A stretch of DNA of 64,000 bases from a virus (taxonomy: Duplodnaviria; Caudoviricetes), in IMG/VR virus record IMGVR_UViG_3300008262_003210; one strand, given 5' to 3'. The notes under the pieces are model-generated. The model searched no databases. It was not told the origin of the DNA and worked only from the letters and a program-made list of their open reading frames with translations. Position numbers and translations under genes: made by a program. This document shows, one piece after another, positions 41,633 through 60,133 of this stretch; positions within the stretch are counted from its first letter, which is position 1; each line of letters starts with the position of its first letter.

Positions 41633-42634
41633 TTAAACGTACCCGAATGAACTATTTAAATAGGAACCTGTGACAAACCTGTCAAGGCTGAACTTGCGAA
41701 TACTTGTTCTGCTGTACATTGGTATCAATGAAACTGTAAATTCACTTTTTGTTGGCACATAAGCCTTGCCGCCACTAGTAGTTCCACCAATTCCAAATGA
41801 ACCAAGTAAGCCAGCGACTTGGCCAACACCGCCAGCAATGGCACTAAAGTTGCTAGCCGCGGATGCAATACCAGGAATAGCTCCACCTAATGAATCTGCT
41901 AGGCCGCCTACTGCATCTGCTGTTCCTGCAAAATTTCCTGCGGCACTACCAACAACATTACATGGTATATAATCTACATCATTAGGCAGTGAAAGACTAA
42001 AATTTTGTATAGCTACTGGTACATTTTTAAAAACATAATTTCCGTAACCATTTAGAAAAACAATCGGGGGCGGGTTTCCCGCTTTTGGATCAAAACCTGT
42101 AAACATTTTTGACACAGAACGTAAATAATGAAGAGCTGCAATCCAATATAGTGCTTGTCCGGCGTCTTCTACTGCCATCGTTGCTGTAATTTCAATAGTG
42201 CCTGGGTCACTACTCTTGTAAGCATTTACTGGATAGTTTGAATGTACTATTGGCTCTGCGGAATATTTTGCGTTACCTTTAATTTGAATTTTAGGAGTAA
42301 ACGGAAACACTAGCCCACCTGCATCTTTAAGTGGTTTTAACACTGGACTAGATCTAAAACTAGTCCAATTTGGGAGACTTAACCTGACACGCCAATCGTT
42401 CGCAAACGGATCACCTTGGAACGCGGTAATTGCACTAACTAAATCGCCAATTGCTTCACCGCCTGCTGGCAAGTTTATAGCTCGCAGGGCACCGCCAACT
42501 CCGGATGCGCTATCTAAACTGGATAACGCAGAACTAATAGCAGATACAGTATTAACTGCCTGTGCCGCGGCACCGAATACTGCTGCGCCAGCAGTAACCT
42601 TATTCACAAAACTATTACCAGATGTAAAAGCCAT
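41633..42634 (-). CDS. tail tube initiator / baseplate-tube junction (gp48/gp54-like)
   Basis: GLVFPFTP, PPPIVFLNGYGNYVFKNVPVAIQNFSLSLP tube-like motif; first gene of the baseplate operon. Confidence 0.6.
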   Translation of the reverse strand: MAFTSGNSFVNKVTAGAAVFGAAAQAVNTVSAISSALSSLDSASGVGGALRAINLPAGGEAIGDLVSAITAFQGDPFANDWRVRLSLPNWTSFRSSPVLKPLKDAGGLVFPFTPKIQIKGNAKYSAEPIVHSNYPVNAYKSSDPGTIEITATMAVEDAGQALYWIAALHYLRSVSKMFTGFDPKAGNPPPIVFLNGYGNYVFKNVPVAIQNFSLSLPNDVDYIPCNVVGSAAGNFAGTADAVGGLADSLGGAIPGIASAASNFSAIAGGVGQVAGLLGSFGIGGTTSGGKAYVPTKSEFTVSLIPMYSRTSIRKFSLDRFVTGSYLNSSFGYV

Positions 42635-42715: not shown

Positions 42716-43558
42716 ATGACAACAATAGCACCAAAGATTAATTACTTAAACAATAAAGATTTACTATTAGAAATACACAAATCAAAAAGTACATTCTGTA
42801 GTTTTATTAAACCAGAATACCATCAATATGATATAATTTTACCTAGTGTAGAAAAAGTAAACATACGTACTATAGCAGAAGCTAAAAGAAACAAAGCAAA
42901 GCGGCTAGGAGACGAAGATTATGCTAGAAGAAAAGCTTCTGGCGAAAAAGTAAAACTAGCAGACTGTGCTGTAGACTATAAAAAAATTGCAAAAGCTGAT
43001 TTGATTTTTAGAATCATGACCTTTGAGCACATACCTACTAACGGTATTCGTAAAAAGAATCCAAAAAGCACAGCAGACAAACACGACAAAGTAAACTTTC
43101 CGCCGTTTCAACATTTCAAGTTTGACGAAAATGACGAGCTTGTATGTGTTGGCAAAAGCCATTGGCGAGGCAGTTTAAAGACAGGAAAGTTTGATAAAGA
43201 TGCTGGACAAATTACTAATAATCTTGCTCGTATGATGATTAAATTATGCGAACGATACGCTACACGAGGTAACGTCCGAGGCTATACCTACAATGATGAA
43301 ATGAAAGGCCAAGCAATTCTTCAACTAACTCAGATAGGACTACAATTCGATGAAAGTAAATCAGACAATCCTTTTGCTTACTTTACTGCTGCTGTTACTA
43401 ATTCATTCGTTAGAGTTATCAACATTGAAAAGCGTAATCAAAACATTAGAGACGATATTTTAGAAATGAACGGTATGAATCCAAGTTATACAAGAACCGG
43501 AGCGGGTGAACACGAAGCTGCATTACGCAGACATACAGAAGGAACAACCGATGAGTAA
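42716..43558 (+). CDS. gp55: late-transcription sigma factor
   Basis: NYLNNKDLL N-terminus; RGYTYNDEM...QFDESKSDNPFAYFT...NSFVRVINIEKR; precedes gp47/gp46 as in T4. Confidence 0.85.
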   Translation: MTTIAPKINYLNNKDLLLEIHKSKSTFCSFIKPEYHQYDIILPSVEKVNIRTIAEAKRNKAKRLGDEDYARRKASGEKVKLADCAVDYKKIAKADLIFRIMTFEHIPTNGIRKKNPKSTADKHDKVNFPPFQHFKFDENDELVCVGKSHWRGSLKTGKFDKDAGQITNNLARMMIKLCERYATRGNVRGYTYNDEMKGQAILQLTQIGLQFDESKSDNPFAYFTAAVTNSFVRVINIEKRNQNIRDDILEMNGMNPSYTRTGAGEHEAALRRHTEGTTDE

Positions 43559-44564
43559 TCTTTTTAAGAAGGTAGCATGTTTTACTGACATACACTTTGG
43601 ATTAAAGTCTAACAGCCAAGTACACAATCAAGACTGTGAAGATTTTGTAGACTGGTACATTGCTAAAGCAAAGGAGGAAGGCTGTGACATTGGAATCTTT
43701 ATGGGCGATTGGCACCATAACAGGAATAGTCTTAATATCACTACCATGGATTATAGTATCAGAGCACTGGAAAAATTGGGCCGTGCTTTTGATCAGTTTT
43801 ACTTTTTTCCTGGTAATCATGATCTTTACTATAAGGACAAGCGCGACATACATTCAGTTGAATTTGGAAAGTACATTCCCGGTATTACCATTGTACACCA
43901 CCCGATGACCGAAGGCAATGTTACATTATGTCCGTGGCTTGTTGGAGAAGAATGGAAGGCGATAGGTAAAAAGAAAGCCAAGTATATCTTTGGACACTTT
44001 GAGCTTCCACATTTTTATATGAATGCCATGGTACAAATGCCAGATCACGGTGAAATACAGTTAGATGCATTTGACGGATATGAGTTGGGCTTTAGCGGAC
44101 ACTTCCACAAACGCCAAAGCAAAGGAAATATGCATTATATTGGCAATGCCTTTCCCCACAACTATGCAGATGCATGGGACGATGAGCGTGGAATGATGAT
44201 TTTAGAATGGGGCGGGCAACCAGAATATCATACTTGGGACAGGCAACCTACATTCCGTACAGTAAAATTAAGTCAATTGATCGATGAAGCAGATACATTG
44301 ATTAAACCCAAACAACATTTACGTGTTACATTAGATATTGATATTAGTTATGAAGAAGCCAGTTTTATTAAAGAAAACTTTATGGCCAATTATGACATCC
44401 GTGAACTTACTTTGATTACGGAGAAGAAGCAAGTTGAGATTAATACAGACATTGATATTCAAGCATTTGAATCAGTTGATCAAATAGTGTCCAGTCAGCT
44501 TGTGAATATTGAAAGTGACACGTATAATAAGAATACGCTACTAGCGATTTATAACAGCCTATGA
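43551..44564 (+). CDS. gp47: recombination endonuclease subunit (Mre11/SbcD-like)
   Basis: FTDIHFG, GDWHH, PGNHD, FGHFE, SGHFH metallophosphoesterase motifs; ATG at 43551 with GAAGGA RBS. Confidence 0.93.
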   Translation: MSNLFKKVACFTDIHFGLKSNSQVHNQDCEDFVDWYIAKAKEEGCDIGIFMGDWHHNRNSLNITTMDYSIRALEKLGRAFDQFYFFPGNHDLYYKDKRDIHSVEFGKYIPGITIVHHPMTEGNVTLCPWLVGEEWKAIGKKKAKYIFGHFELPHFYMNAMVQMPDHGEIQLDAFDGYELGFSGHFHKRQSKGNMHYIGNAFPHNYADAWDDERGMMILEWGGQPEYHTWDRQPTFRTVKLSQLIDEADTLIKPKQHLRVTLDIDISYEEASFIKENFMANYDIRELTLITEKKQVEINTDIDIQAFESVDQIVSSQLVNIESDTYNKNTLLAIYNSL

Positions 44565-46339
44565 TAAAAATTAAAGAACTTACAGTCAAAAACTTTATGA
44601 GCGTGGGTAATCAAACCCAAGCTGTAGATTTTGGCAAGCAACAATTGACGCTCGTACTAGGTGAAAACTTAGATATGGGCGGAGATGATAGTGGAAGTCG
44701 CAACGGCACAGGTAAAACTACTATTGTTAATGCATTAAGTTATGCATTGTTTGGTACTGCTCTAACCAATATTAAGAAAGATAACTTAATTAATAAGATC
44801 AACAACAAGAACATGCTGGTTACATTGGCGTTTAACAAAGACGGAACGGACTATCGTATCGAGCGTGGACGCAAACCTAACATCCTACAGTTCTACGTTA
44901 ACGATGTTGAACAAGAAACAGAAGAAACTGATGATGCTCAGGGCGATATGCGTGAGACACAGAAAGATTTAGATGAGTTGTTGGGTATGAGTCACGATAT
45001 GTTCAAACATATCCTAGCACTTAATACCTATACAGAACCGTTTCTCAGTATGCGAGCTAACGATCAACGGGCAATCATCGAACAATTATTAGGTATAACT
45101 ATCCTAAGTGAAAAATCTGAAACCCTTAAAGAATTAATCCGCACTACTAAAGACGATATAGTTCAAGAAAATGCTAGGATTGAAGCAACTAAAAAATCAA
45201 ACGAAGGCATTCAGAAGAGCATTGACAGTTTACTTACTAAACAAACTGTTTGGAATAGTCAAAGAGACGCAGATGTTGAAAAGATAGGACGGGCTATCAT
45301 AGAACTTGAGAGCGTAGATATCGAAGCTGAGCTTGCGAAGCACGGCGAGCTCAAAGTTTTTGAAGAAAAGACAGCGAAGCTGCGCTCGCTGAATAAAGAA
45401 CGTGCTACGTTAGAAAGCGCGATAGCGCAAGCAGAGCGAAGCGTCACAAAGTACGACAGCGAGCTTGCCAAATTGGCTAACAAGACCTGTCACGCATGTG
45501 AACAACAGCTGCATGACCACAAACATGAAGAGTTGTCCACTCAAGCCCGGGATAATTTAACTGAAGCGCAAAAGTATTTTACCAAAGTACAAGCAGACTT
45601 GAAAAAAATACAAACAGAAATTGTTGCTATAGGCGAAGTAAGTACCCGACCCAACACCTATTATGACACAGTTGAAGAAGCACTTAAACATCAAAACAAT
45701 CTCAAGACTCTGGAAACTCAGCTGACTGTACGTGCGGGCGAACAGGATCCCTATCAAGAACAAATTGAAGAACTGTTAAACACCGCAATGGTAGAAATAA
45801 CTTGGGACCATGTCAACGACCTCAACAGTTTAAAGGATCATCAAGAGTTTTTACTCAAGTTGCTGACCAGCAAGGACAGCTTTATACGTAAAAAGATTAT
45901 AGATCAAAACCTAGCGTATTTAAACAACAGACTAACTTATTATCTAGACAAGATGGGATTGCCGCACACAGTGACATTCCAAAATGACTTGAATGTTGAA
46001 ATTACTCAGCTAGGGCAAGACTTGGATTTTGATAATCTCAGTCGAGGTGAACGTAATAGGCTTATACTGGGCTTATCGTGGGCGTTCCGTGATGTGTGGG
46101 AAAGTCTATATCAAAACATCAACTTGTTGTTTGTCGACGAATTAGTTGACAACGGCTTGGATGCGTCGGGAGTTGAAAGTGCTCTAGCAGTACTGAAGAA
46201 AATGGGCCGTGAACGCAATAAAAACATATTCTTAATCAGTCACAAGGACGAATTGATTGGGCGTGTCAACAATGTGCTTAAGGTTGTTAAGGAAAATGGC
46301 TTTACCAGCTATGCCAACGACTTGGAGATAGCGGACTGA
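44561..46339 (+). CDS. gp46: recombination ATPase subunit (Rad50/SbcC-like)
   Basis: Walker A NGTGKT, zinc hook CHAC, signature LSRGE, Walker B LLFVDE, H-loop ISHK. Confidence 0.95.
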   Translation: MIKIKELTVKNFMSVGNQTQAVDFGKQQLTLVLGENLDMGGDDSGSRNGTGKTTIVNALSYALFGTALTNIKKDNLINKINNKNMLVTLAFNKDGTDYRIERGRKPNILQFYVNDVEQETEETDDAQGDMRETQKDLDELLGMSHDMFKHILALNTYTEPFLSMRANDQRAIIEQLLGITILSEKSETLKELIRTTKDDIVQENARIEATKKSNEGIQKSIDSLLTKQTVWNSQRDADVEKIGRAIIELESVDIEAELAKHGELKVFEEKTAKLRSLNKERATLESAIAQAERSVTKYDSELAKLANKTCHACEQQLHDHKHEELSTQARDNLTEAQKYFTKVQADLKKIQTEIVAIGEVSTRPNTYYDTVEEALKHQNNLKTLETQLTVRAGEQDPYQEQIEELLNTAMVEITWDHVNDLNSLKDHQEFLLKLLTSKDSFIRKKIIDQNLAYLNNRLTYYLDKMGLPHTVTFQNDLNVEITQLGQDLDFDNLSRGERNRLILGLSWAFRDVWESLYQNINLLFVDELVDNGLDASGVESALAVLKKMGRERNKNIFLISHKDELIGRVNNVLKVVKENGFTSYANDLEIAD

Positions 46340-46608
46340 TGAGCAAGAAAGTCGATCCAGTAGACTATCAAGATGAGGAACTACACGCAGAACTGCTGCG
46401 CTTGTTTCGACTTTACTTTGAAGCCAATCAAAAATGGATCAACCGGGCCACTAAACAAAGTTCAATTGAACTGCGGCAGGTGCTAAGTGAAATACGCAAG
46501 GTCTGTATTCAGCGTAGAGAAGTAGTTCGTGCATGGGCAGTGACCAAAGAAGCGCAGTTGGCTGAAAGAAAAATTCTTAGAAATGAAAAAACCAGCAAAC
46601 AAATTTGA
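46339..46608 (+). CDS. small basic helical protein, possibly Hc1 histone-like family
   Basis: 89 aa; RATKQSSIELRQVLSEIRKVCIQRRE loosely recalls the Hc1 family KGNKAA..RARK..LEI.K...ERR pattern. Confidence 0.4.
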   Translation: MSKKVDPVDYQDEELHAELLRLFRLYFEANQKWINRATKQSSIELRQVLSEIRKVCIQRREVVRAWAVTKEAQLAERKILRNEKTSKQI

Positions 46609-47341
46609 TTGTATCTACGTCAATGGCTGTAGCTGGGCCTACGGCAGTGAGCTGACTGATCCAGGCAGTCCAAGAATTACCAATCACTTTGATCCAGTGC
46701 ATGAACGGTACCGCGAACAAAACAACTGGCCCACGAGACTGGCCACAGCATTTGGTGTGCCTGTACACAACAACAGCATGCCTGGCGGCAGCAATGATAG
46801 GATTTTAAGAACTGGCATGCTGGATATTATTCAGTTGATCAAGCAGGGTGCTAGGCCCTTTGTGGTCATAGCATGGAGTCAGTTGCATAGATTTGAACTG
46901 CCCGACAACAACAACAACTATGGTTGGAGGCCTTTTGTCAGTCCCAAGGATCCAAACAATCTTGAAATTGCTAGGAAAATTTGGGCCGAACACAGTTCAG
47001 ATAGATCAGATATTGAACGATGGCTGGTGCAAATCATCAGCTTGGATGGGTTTTTAAAGTCACATGACCTAAACTATGTGTCTACCACAGTATTCAACAG
47101 TACATATCCTATCTTTGAACGGGTCACTGAAGAAAAATACTTTGATCCCTATCTACACTATTTAAAAACGCAGATGAATCTTGACCATCATCTGTTGCAC
47201 TACAGTTTAGAAACATACTTAAGGCAACAAGCAGGCATAGACTACGGCCCCGGAGGACATCCTTTGGTTTCCGGGCACGAGTTGATCAGTAATCACTTGA
47301 GAAGGCACATGTTAAACACATTTCAATTTCAAAGGCAGTAG
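46583..47341 (+). CDS. SGNH/GDSL-like hydrolase
   Basis: Block I YVNGCSWAYG, block II MPGGSNDRI, block V DYGPGGHP. Confidence 0.6.
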   Translation: MKKPANKFDCIYVNGCSWAYGSELTDPGSPRITNHFDPVHERYREQNNWPTRLATAFGVPVHNNSMPGGSNDRILRTGMLDIIQLIKQGARPFVVIAWSQLHRFELPDNNNNYGWRPFVSPKDPNNLEIARKIWAEHSSDRSDIERWLVQIISLDGFLKSHDLNYVSTTVFNSTYPIFERVTEEKYFDPYLHYLKTQMNLDHHLLHYSLETYLRQQAGIDYGPGGHPLVSGHELISNHLRRHMLNTFQFQRQ

Positions 47342-47365
47342 AGCAGGTGAACCAATATATAGTTG

Positions 47366-59197: not shown

Positions 59198-60133
59198 ATG
59201 TCTAGAATATTAAGAGTAACCGAAGGTGATTATAGAGTCAAAGTTCAAGATGCTGGGAGCATCACGCTTGATACTGGACTCGAACAAGGTACGGTTATTA
59301 TCACCGGAGATTTACTAGTTAAAGGCAATACAACTACAGTTGATACTGCTAATCTTAATATTGAAGACAATTTAATTTTATTAAACAAAGGCGAAAGCGG
59401 AGCAGGAGTTACAGAAGGAACAGCAGGTTTAGAAATTGAACGAGGATCACTTGAAAACGCACAATTTTTGTGGGACGAATCAATTGATAAGTTTAAAATT
59501 CAACTTGATACAGATGTTCTTTCAGGTATTGTAGTTGGAAATATTGCAACAGATCCAACTACAAACTTAGAGTTTGATATGCAAAGTGGACCTGGTACCC
59601 TACGCATTACAAATTCAACAGGTTATGAAAGTCGTGTGTTAGATCCAGACGATATTCCAAATAGACAATATGTAACCGACTATGTGTTTGCCAGCGGCGG
59701 ATCTGCTGTTGTTAGTTTAATTCAATATCCAGTTGGCGCTTCGTACGGCAATGCAGATACTATGGTAGAAGCACTATCATCAAGTATTAAAATTTGGGTT
59801 GATCCGGGCACTGGACTTTCTCAAGTAGCACAATTTTCTAATAATGGTCTTGACGTTGACAATGTAAATATTTTAGAAAATACAATTTTAAATTCTGACC
59901 CAGCAGAATATTTGATTCTGACAGCGGCTAGTACACATGTTCAAATAGATGGTGTTCTTAATTTGAAAGAATTAATTACTGCACCAACTTCTACCGGAGG
60001 AGATGCTAGACTTTATGCAAAATCTGTCGCAGTTGGAGAAGAATTTAACAGTGGTGTGTTTATTGCTAACAGCAGAACACAAGATGAAATTGTAGTTAAA
60101 AATAGAGCGTTACTTTTAAGTATGCTCTTTTAA
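59198..60133 (+). CDS. putative virion fibre/structural protein
   Basis: ITGDLLVKGNTTTVDTANLNIEDNLILLNK fibre-type motif, similar to the one in 10161..11822. Confidence 0.6.
   Translation: MSRILRVTEGDYRVKVQDAGSITLDTGLEQGTVIITGDLLVKGNTTTVDTANLNIEDNLILLNKGESGAGVTEGTAGLEIERGSLENAQFLWDESIDKFKIQLDTDVLSGIVVGNIATDPTTNLEFDMQSGPGTLRITNSTGYESRVLDPDDIPNRQYVTDYVFASGGSAVVSLIQYPVGASYGNADTMVEALSSSIKIWVDPGTGLSQVAQFSNNGLDVDNVNILENTILNSDPAEYLILTAASTHVQIDGVLNLKELITAPTSTGGDARLYAKSVAVGEEFNSGVFIANSRTQDEIVVKNRALLLSMLF

Follow-up and report, generated by a model that had tools for sequence, protein, structure and literature searches.

Is a cluster of hairpin-forming heptamers inside a protein-coding gene a nucleic-acid signal in its own right, or a by-product of codon choice? 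The gp46 gene of an uncultured T4-like jumbo phage raises this question. It lies on a stretch of viral DNA of 64,000 nucleotides (IMG/VR record IMGVR_UViG_3300008262_003210), which is called the window in the following. A preliminary description had noted three copies of GCGAAGC in a GC- and CpG-rich patch of this gene and had suggested a cis-acting element of single-stranded DNA (ssDNA), namely an origin, a primosome-assembly site or a recombination signal. The heptamer d(GCGAAGC) and the octamer d(GCGAAAGC) are mini-hairpins of the Hirao type, with the general form GCGNAGC or GCGNNAGC (PMC13037366). A comparison with related phages singles out the third heptamer, which belongs to a 29-nt core (45416–45444). 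Judged by its silent-site conservation, this core is a real, clade-specific cis element. We favor the reading that it is a chain of hairpin motifs on the + strand, selected at the nucleotide level, with the first two copies being labile, and hold this reading with about as much confidence as doubt. For the coordinates of all features see Table 1.

Synonymous constraint in the core

A scan of IMG/VR yielded 80 loci with gp46 homologues of 65–90% identity, which were codon-aligned. In a set of 25 non-redundant carriers the strongest synonymous conservation of the gene was found at codons 283–297. The synonymous identity of codons 286–294 is 0.89 (9-codon window) compared with a gene mean of 0.516 (standard deviation 0.082), and the next-best window reaches 0.74. 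This peak also exceeds every window in three neighboring genes. The 20-mer GCGCAAGCRGAGCGAAGCGT, which spans the third heptamer, is present in at least 119 IMG/VR viral contigs, once per contig, and in 118 of these it lies in the gp46 context AQAERSV. A search employing the upstream half of the core retrieved the same family.

Per-site conservation was calculated from 97 unique 320-nt contexts. The third positions of codons 286–294 are 85–100% fixed, with G in 97% at Ala287 and A in 100% at codon 288. Immediately outside, at codons 285 and 295, the third position varies freely, with the major allele at 0.37 and 0.60, respectively. Silent sites flanking the core look saturated and their linkage is near zero (r2 0.02–0.08), even at distances below 15 nt. 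Since the edges are sharp and independent of lineage and the flanks are unlinked and saturated, the invariance of the core argues for long-term purifying selection and not for a recent sweep. Several codons that are rare in these phages are fixed in the core: GCG three times (13% usage), CGA (13%), GAG (26%) and ATA (17%). The conservation thus rises above background, has defined edges at codons 285 and 295 and extends over diverged homologues, within a clade that was chosen by the feature.

Sequence logic of the core

The core reads AGC GCG AYA GCG CAA GCR GAG CGA AGC GT and can be parsed as GC[GAYA]GC[GCAA]GC[GGA/AGA]GC[GAA]GC, that is, as four overlapping motifs of the form GCGN(N)AGC. All four are chained in the core of 85% of the relatives. 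The core of the window holds three, its Ala291 being encoded by GCA (GCAGAGC). An enumeration of all synonymous codings of the peptide Ser-Ala-Ile/Thr-Ala-Gln-Ala-Glu-Arg-Ser revealed that four is the maximum number of motifs. It is attained by a fraction of 1.1–1.5e-4 of all codings, or about 1–2e-5 under the codon usage of the clade. In this pattern Ala codons that end in G take turns with ATA/ACA, CAA and CGA, which all end in A. Because these A-ending codons are fixed, the pattern is not the choice of GC pressure or GC-biased conversion.

The variation that does occur in the core falls on loop N positions, i.e. the Y of AYA and the third base of the Arg codon. In 82 unique contexts that had been selected only on the upstream half of the core, copy 3 is kept in 74, and six of the eight variants change the loop N only. 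The third bases of Glu (stem G) and Ser (stem C) never vary in this set. The first base of Arg (stem C) varies twice and its third base (loop N) six times (A 74, T 5, G 1). The original proposal is borne out in part: its mini-hairpin reading suits the surroundings of the third heptamer, and does so better than had been recognized, as the frozen core is a four-motif chain with variable loop N.

From these comparisons the following picture emerges. The patch belongs to the ascending coiled coil of the phage Rad50 (gp46) gene, and one clade of uncultured T4-like jumbo phages has recoded it with G-ending codons. Purifying selection at the nucleotide level, which the comparisons show, maintains the core, in which GC dinucleotides are spaced by G(N)NA loops and nested in a possible 38-nt stem-loop. 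The core would fold as a single strand and act in cis, and this strand would be the gp46 mRNA or else a displaced or lagging-template DNA strand.

The first two heptamers

Many of the homologues carry the patch, and the distant relatives (<78% identity) have neither the motifs nor a GC-rich patch. Among the 34 closest relatives copy 3 is found in about 25, copy 1 in 11 and copy 2 in 12. In the 97 core-bearing unique sequences copy 1 occurs in 35 (36%) and copy 2 in 43 (44%). Even the second-closest relative, L028, has lost both through silent GCG-to-GCA changes. Averaged across the 34 close sequences, silent sites near copies 1 and 2 are no more conserved than the gene as a whole, their synonymous identity being equal to the gene mean or lower. 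The first two copies are therefore not individually protected, and the idea that the three heptamers form one unit has to be given up. Copies 1 and 2 are at most dispensable satellite copies. They arise readily once Ala is encoded by GCG and Lys by AAG, and are gained and lost among close relatives. The patches of relatives contain up to six or seven motifs.

Motif density in the window

The three heptamers are exact and all on the + strand, and the sequences quoted for copies 1 and 2 (TGCGAAGCA and CAGCGAAGCTG) are confirmed. The first two copies are both in-frame Ala-Lys-C triplets; copy 3 is in a different register. The patch is indeed GC-rich (0.51, compared with a window mean of 0.366 and a standard deviation of 0.057 in 150-nt windows) and ties for the top CpG density in the 64 kb (17 per 150 nt versus 4.1 ± 2.3). 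It also contains the dyad GCGC-GATA-GCGC (45417–45428) and the stem 45328–45336/45345–45353, which comprises eight Watson-Crick pairs and one G-T pair. We considered an intrinsic terminator at the latter position (45328–45353) and rejected it, as the T run is not conserved. The patch lies just before the zinc hook, 15 codons upstream of its CxxC codons, in a coiled coil that had been called tolerant. Residues 276–298, however, are among the better conserved parts of this coiled coil.

The null model for motif counts was restricted to the window. GCGAAGC occurs there six times, counting both strands, and dinucleotide shuffles give 3.1 ± 1.7. The local density is not matched by codon-preserving shuffles: three or more copies were obtained in 0.15% of the trials (P 0.0015) when synonymous codons were permuted over the whole gene, and in 1% (P 0.01) when they were permuted within 45250–45500 only. 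The wider motif GCGN(N)AGC was defined beforehand by the literature (PMC13037366). Five + strand copies are present between 45335 and 45442 (at 45335, 45374, 45419, 45425 and 45436), with P-values of 0.0012 gene-wide and 0.007 locally in codon-preserving shuffles, and the patch is the sole cluster of this motif within the window. A look-elsewhere caveat applies to these values, as 31 other heptamers are tripled within 115 nt somewhere in the window.

Further motifs were seen elsewhere. At 59391–59403, inside an open reading frame (ORF) at 59198–60133, the sequence GCGAAAGCGGAGC combines a classic G4-type octamer with an overlapping GGA heptamer. The 19-mer around it, which was used as negative control, had no match in IMG/VR, and this two-motif array looks like chance. 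GCGN(N)AGC motifs, one per strand, are located at 42582 and 42585. A − strand GCGAAGC (48163–48169), just past a Polynucleobacter-1 RNA, is part of the perfect palindrome AAACGC-GAA-GCGTTT, whose 6-bp stem is much better than that of any gp46 copy. A second CpG-dense stretch (54500–55300, with 17 CpG per 150 nt at 54592–54741) contains many short tripled heptamers of the GACGAAG/CGAAGAC kind, which probably stem from a coding repeat that is acidic or charged.

Folding as DNA or RNA

RNAalifold predicts a 38-nt stem-loop with pairing of ACGYU/AGCGU followed by CGC/GCG and the apex GC-GCAA-GC. The consensus stem-loop pairs in 98% of the cells. Its sole co-varying pair connects position 2 of codon 288 with position 3 of codon 291 (C-G 50, U-G 31, U-A 11, C-A 4). 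A search of the region 44000–47000 against Rfam (E ≤ 1) gave no match to a structured RNA family.

The stems in the core are 2–4 bp long. The GGA and GAA loops sit on 2-bp stems; copy 2, outside the core, has a stem of 4 bp (CAGC/GCTG). Two-base-pair stems are stable only in DNA (PMC13037366). The 2-bp stems together with the GAYA, GGA and GAA loops suit a DNA-type fold, and the GCAA loop and the outer stem suit RNA. An mRNA hairpin accounts for the conservation about equally well as a DNA fold. A nearest-neighbor DNA model yielded −2.1 to −7.6 kcal/mol with z about 0, in a parameter set that has no mini-hairpin term.

Several points weigh against a selected hairpin-motif chain. In the wider set of 34 sequences the synonymous peak goes down to 0.65 and is level with other peaks. 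In a tree built from the gene outside the patch, the carriers form a 31-row clade with a Shimodaira-Hasegawa-like approximate likelihood ratio test (SH-aLRT) value of 84; this group was recognized by the feature itself, and six non-carriers are nested inside it. In 15% of the carriers, the window included, GCA at Ala291 breaks the third motif. The covariation of the RNA consensus was reached by 51 of 500 shuffles, the core being nearly invariant and without real covariation, and the 288/291 pair has four C-A exceptions and a Fisher P of 0.02 without tree correction. As DNA or RNA and on either strand, neither the patch nor the core is predicted to fold with a better energy than shuffles do (z −0.3 to −1.9, with all scores between +1.1 and −1.9). 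Finally, a sequence-specific protein site would equally freeze bases.

The DNA version of the hairpin chain can be stated more specifically: the four mini-hairpins may be an ssDNA signal on the lagging-strand template or a resected strand, in a large freshwater T4-like clade, with the satellites at 45335 and 45374 turning over nearby. We regard this version as doubtful. Under it, the chain might, for example, provide a landing pad free of single-stranded DNA-binding protein, used in priming or to load a helicase, or might stop an exonuclease and thereby set the 3' end for recombination-dependent replication.

Alternative explanations

An equally doubtful alternative is that the core is a duplex recognition site for a clade-specific protein, such as a regulator, a nicking enzyme or a nuclease, and that its hairpin look is incidental to an (RAGCG)x3 array plus a GCGC dyad. 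The core does contain the tandem pentamers AAGCG-GAGCG-AAGCG and the dyad GCGC-N4-GCGC, AGCG is 25-fold enriched in the patch, the loop bases are nearly invariant as well, and there is a single copy per genome. On the other hand, neither a second copy in the 64 kb nor an associated clade-specific gene was found; the neighboring GIY-YIG gene occurs both with and without the core. Moreover, the variable positions are the loop N positions and not a random subset, and a protein site leaves the maximal-motif coding unexplained.

The original proposal, in which all three GCGAAGC copies are nuclease-resistant ssDNA mini-hairpins that together form an origin, a primosome-assembly site or a recombination signal, now appears unlikely. 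It is in line with the motif density, which the codon-preserving shuffles do not match, with the core being a chain of mini-hairpin motifs, and with the stability of 2-bp stems in DNA only. Furthermore, GCG and AAG are always paired at copies 1 and 2 (35/35 and 43/43) and GCG-AAA is never seen, and outside the core the carriers have 27 motifs compared with 7.2 expected, both figures being uncorrected for shared ancestry. The + strand, on which the motifs lie, would be the lagging-strand template for forks starting from a skew minimum at 42 kb. Against this, most carriers lack copies 1 and 2, and L028 lost both through silent G-to-A changes. The cumulative GC skew has its minimum at about 42 kb and not in gp46, through which it rises steadily. 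This turn is 3 kb off, at a divergent promoter region, and coincides with a flip in gene orientation (− strand genes up to 42634, + strand genes from 42716). A recombination hotspot at the core was rejected as well, since site pairs spanning the core are not less linked than pairs on the same side; linkage does not drop across it. No evidence was obtained for an origin, a primosome-assembly site or a recombination signal.

The comparison with known origins points the same way. T4 origins consist of a promoter of the middle-mode class along with an A+T-rich unwinding element (oriF, oriG) or of 12-nt iterons (oriE) (PMC3016281). For an origin that is embedded in a gene of recombination or replication, or adjoins one, there is a precedent in oriF and oriG, which lie in or beside uvsY and gene 32, and in oriE (PMC3016281). 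Like these three T4 origins, the patch is near a switch in transcription direction and skew, at a distance of 3 kb. Unlike them, it is GC-rich (51%) and shows no combination of a middle-mode or sigma-70-type promoter with an A+T-rich element within about 100 bp, nor iterons. No + strand promoter-like site was found in 44530–46700, and a weak − strand match at 45324–45296 is the only one near the patch.

The complementary-strand origins of G4, St-1 and alpha3 and the ssiA site of RSF1010 also carry the motif on the would-be priming-template strand. Those sites, however, are non-coding and belong to ssDNA replicons or a plasmid oriV, and their motif caps a stem of 8 bp (G4) or longer that is read by the DnaG or RepB' primase. 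The core described here lies inside a conserved ORF of a double-stranded DNA (dsDNA) jumbo phage and has stems of 2–4 bp, whereas natural mini-hairpins sit in the 5–8 bp stems of ssDNA replicons or N4 promoters. The promoters of the phage N4 virion RNA polymerase (GCGGAGC, 5-bp stem, 3-nt loop) are matched by most relatives, whose AAGCGGAGC is identical over 9 nt. The flanks here give a 2-bp stem, though, and the window reads GCAGAGC; the stem of 5–7 bp, 3-nt loop, central purine and conserved flanks of an N4-type promoter are not found together. We know of no T4-like phage that uses a virion RNA polymerase. With the Hirao mini-hairpins themselves the core shares exact motif matches, and their GC stems and G...A loop ends correspond to the conserved synonymous sites. 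It differs from them in that its GC stems overlap in a chain, so that at most two can fold at once, and in that it is coding sequence of a dsDNA phage.

It is improbable that the patch has no function, i.e. that it reflects drift towards G- and C-ending codons or GC-biased gene conversion and that the core is a recently spread allele. The patch is a mosaic: on the rest-of-gene tree the three-copy haplotype turns up at four or more positions, L027 and L011 have a synonymous identity to the window of 0.8 in the patch and 0.49 elsewhere, and the sister sequence L004, which is less distant than these two, has only 0.42 in the patch. The GC content at third codon positions (GC3) is raised over about 240 nt (codons 261–320: 0.49–0.57 in carriers versus 0.19–0.27 in relatives without the patch). 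In addition, the unconserved array at 59391 indicates that two-motif arrays can arise by chance. What such a process does not explain are the sharp edges of the 29-nt block between saturated and unlinked flanks, the invariance of the core across at least 97 unique flank haplotypes, the rare A-ending ATA, CAA and CGA fixed within a GC3-rich patch, and the enrichment of GCG (about 3-fold) but not of GCC.

A translational role, in which a cluster of rare codons slows ribosomes before the zinc hook and aids co-translational folding or dimerization of the coiled coil, is highly improbable: seven adjacent rare codons do lie 15 codons upstream of the hook, but a pause could be produced by any rare synonym (GCC, CGG, AGG), and what is observed is the fixation (97–100%) of particular codons; the common codon CAA is fixed as well.

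Other candidates were rejected. Alternative and antisense frames across the core are 24–76 residues from stop to stop and none is longer (start codons were not looked for), and a constraint of ten codons is too short for an overlapping ORF. A dispersed repeat or regulatory box would recur, but the window has no second copy of the core at up to three mismatches, and other contigs contain it once each; inverted repeats involving the core were not found either. Four matches in 596 Gb of prokaryote genomes are about the chance level and speak against host mimicry or a CRISPR target. A sweep by a homing endonuclease does not fit, since the GIY-YIG gene is near-universal in carriers and non-carriers and the variable ORFs at 46339–47341 do not track the core. 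For a long-range RNA partner, including the neighboring Polynucleobacter-1 RNA, the best duplex has −26.5 kcal/mol compared with −29.8 ± 2.9 for the shuffled core.

The core resembles the synonymous-constraint elements embedded in viral and phage coding regions, such as internal RNA hairpins, operators and frameshift stimulators, being a short frozen block of rare codons with sharp edges in one clade. It differs from these in that no overlapping ORF, slippery site in the window, Rfam family or partner sequence was found.

With respect to slippery sites, about 58% of the core-bearing relatives (e.g. L002, L006, L010, L012 and L041) have GTA AAA AAG/AAA directly after the core, at the position of 45443–45451 in the window. 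GTA AAA AAG contains a slippery heptamer of the dnaX type (A_AAA_AAG) that lies in the zero frame, with GGAG 8 nt upstream and a −1 stop three codons further on. In the window, which reads GTC ACA AAG here, there is no slippery site. In these codons GTA is always combined with AAA, and GTC or GTT with ACR.

Gene and neighborhood

The ORF that hosts the patch has both ATPase lobes, a hooked coiled coil and an adjacent Mre11 gene, as expected for Rad50/SbcC/gp46 proteins. Its translation shows Walker A (GTGKT), the coiled coil, CxxC (CHAC), LSRGE and Walker B (LLFVDE). Rad50 ATPase chains match it in a PDB search (E 1e-9), and its identity to the 'recombination endonuclease subunit' of three jumbo phages (Phosso, PA5oct and Atu_ph07) amounts to 49%. 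A megablast of gp46 against named phages gave no match; relatives among these are found at the protein level only (up to 49%). The Metallophos (Mre11/gp47) gene upstream overlaps the start of gp46 by 4 nt and is itself preceded by a gp55-like late sigma gene.

Downstream, the stretch from gp46 to the GIY-YIG gene (46339–47341) is variable across loci. It holds a 252-residue DUF6071 ORF in 4 of the 80 loci (L001, L002, L004 and L027) and an 89-residue ORF that is widespread among them but diverged. The 145-residue GIY-YIG-like nuclease (47363–47800) is a near-universal neighbor of gp46 in the 80 loci, which suggests a core gene (T4 endonuclease II-like) and not a mobile homing endonuclease. Its top PHROG match is labeled 'NAD synthetase', and homing-endonuclease families match more weakly.

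Table 1. Features of the gp46 region, in coordinates of the window.
Feature	Position	Strand	Remarks
gp47/Mre11-like nuclease gene	43506..44564	+	Pfam Metallophos match; SbcD-like beside gp46 homologue in PA5oct-type phages
gp46/Rad50/SbcC-like ATPase gene (592 aa), host of the patch	44561..46339	+	Pfam AAA_23 and SMC_N
GC/CpG-rich patch, rich in G-ending codons	45310..45480	+	GC and CpG counts
9-pair stem, 8-nt loop, then T run	45328..45353	+	Two Glu-Leu dipeptides (GAGCTN); T run not conserved
GCGAAGC copy 1	45335..45341	+	Codons GCG AAG C(AC) = Ala259-Lys260-His261; evolutionarily labile
GCGAAGC copy 2	45374..45380	+	Codons GCG AAG C(TG) = Ala272-Lys273-Leu274, inside CAGC-GAA-GCTG; evolutionarily labile
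29-nt synonymously constrained core, codons 286–295	45416..45444	+	Ser-Ala-Ile/Thr-Ala-Gln-Ala-Glu-Arg-Ser-Val
GCGATAGC, GCGNNAGC-type motif, apex of GCGC-GATA-GCGC	45419..45426	+	
GCGCAAGC, GCGNNAGC-type motif; in RNA, a GNRA tetraloop, C(GCAA)G	45425..45432	+	
GCGAAGC copy 3	45436..45442	+	(GA)G CGA AGC = Glu292-Arg293-Ser294; conserved
Zinc-hook codons Cys-His-Ala-Cys (310–313)	45488..45499	+	Translation; conserved in all relatives

Significance

Two of the three heptamers that drew attention to the locus are labile codon by-products. What points to a working nucleic-acid signal inside an essential recombination gene is the silent-site constraint over 29 nt in more than 100 diverged phages. 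The codon pattern of the core is one coding in about 10,000 that maximizes a motif known chemically as an ultra-stable DNA hairpin. If the RNA reading is true, jumbo phages would have a hitherto unknown internal element that controls Mre11-Rad50 expression. If the DNA reading is true, the mini-hairpin would gain a natural, selected role beyond small ssDNA replicons, and the core would suggest that replication or recombination of the T4 type employs a cis signal. As an ssDNA signal it would be, among natural mini-hairpin arrays, the first with demonstrated selection in a coding region of a dsDNA phage.

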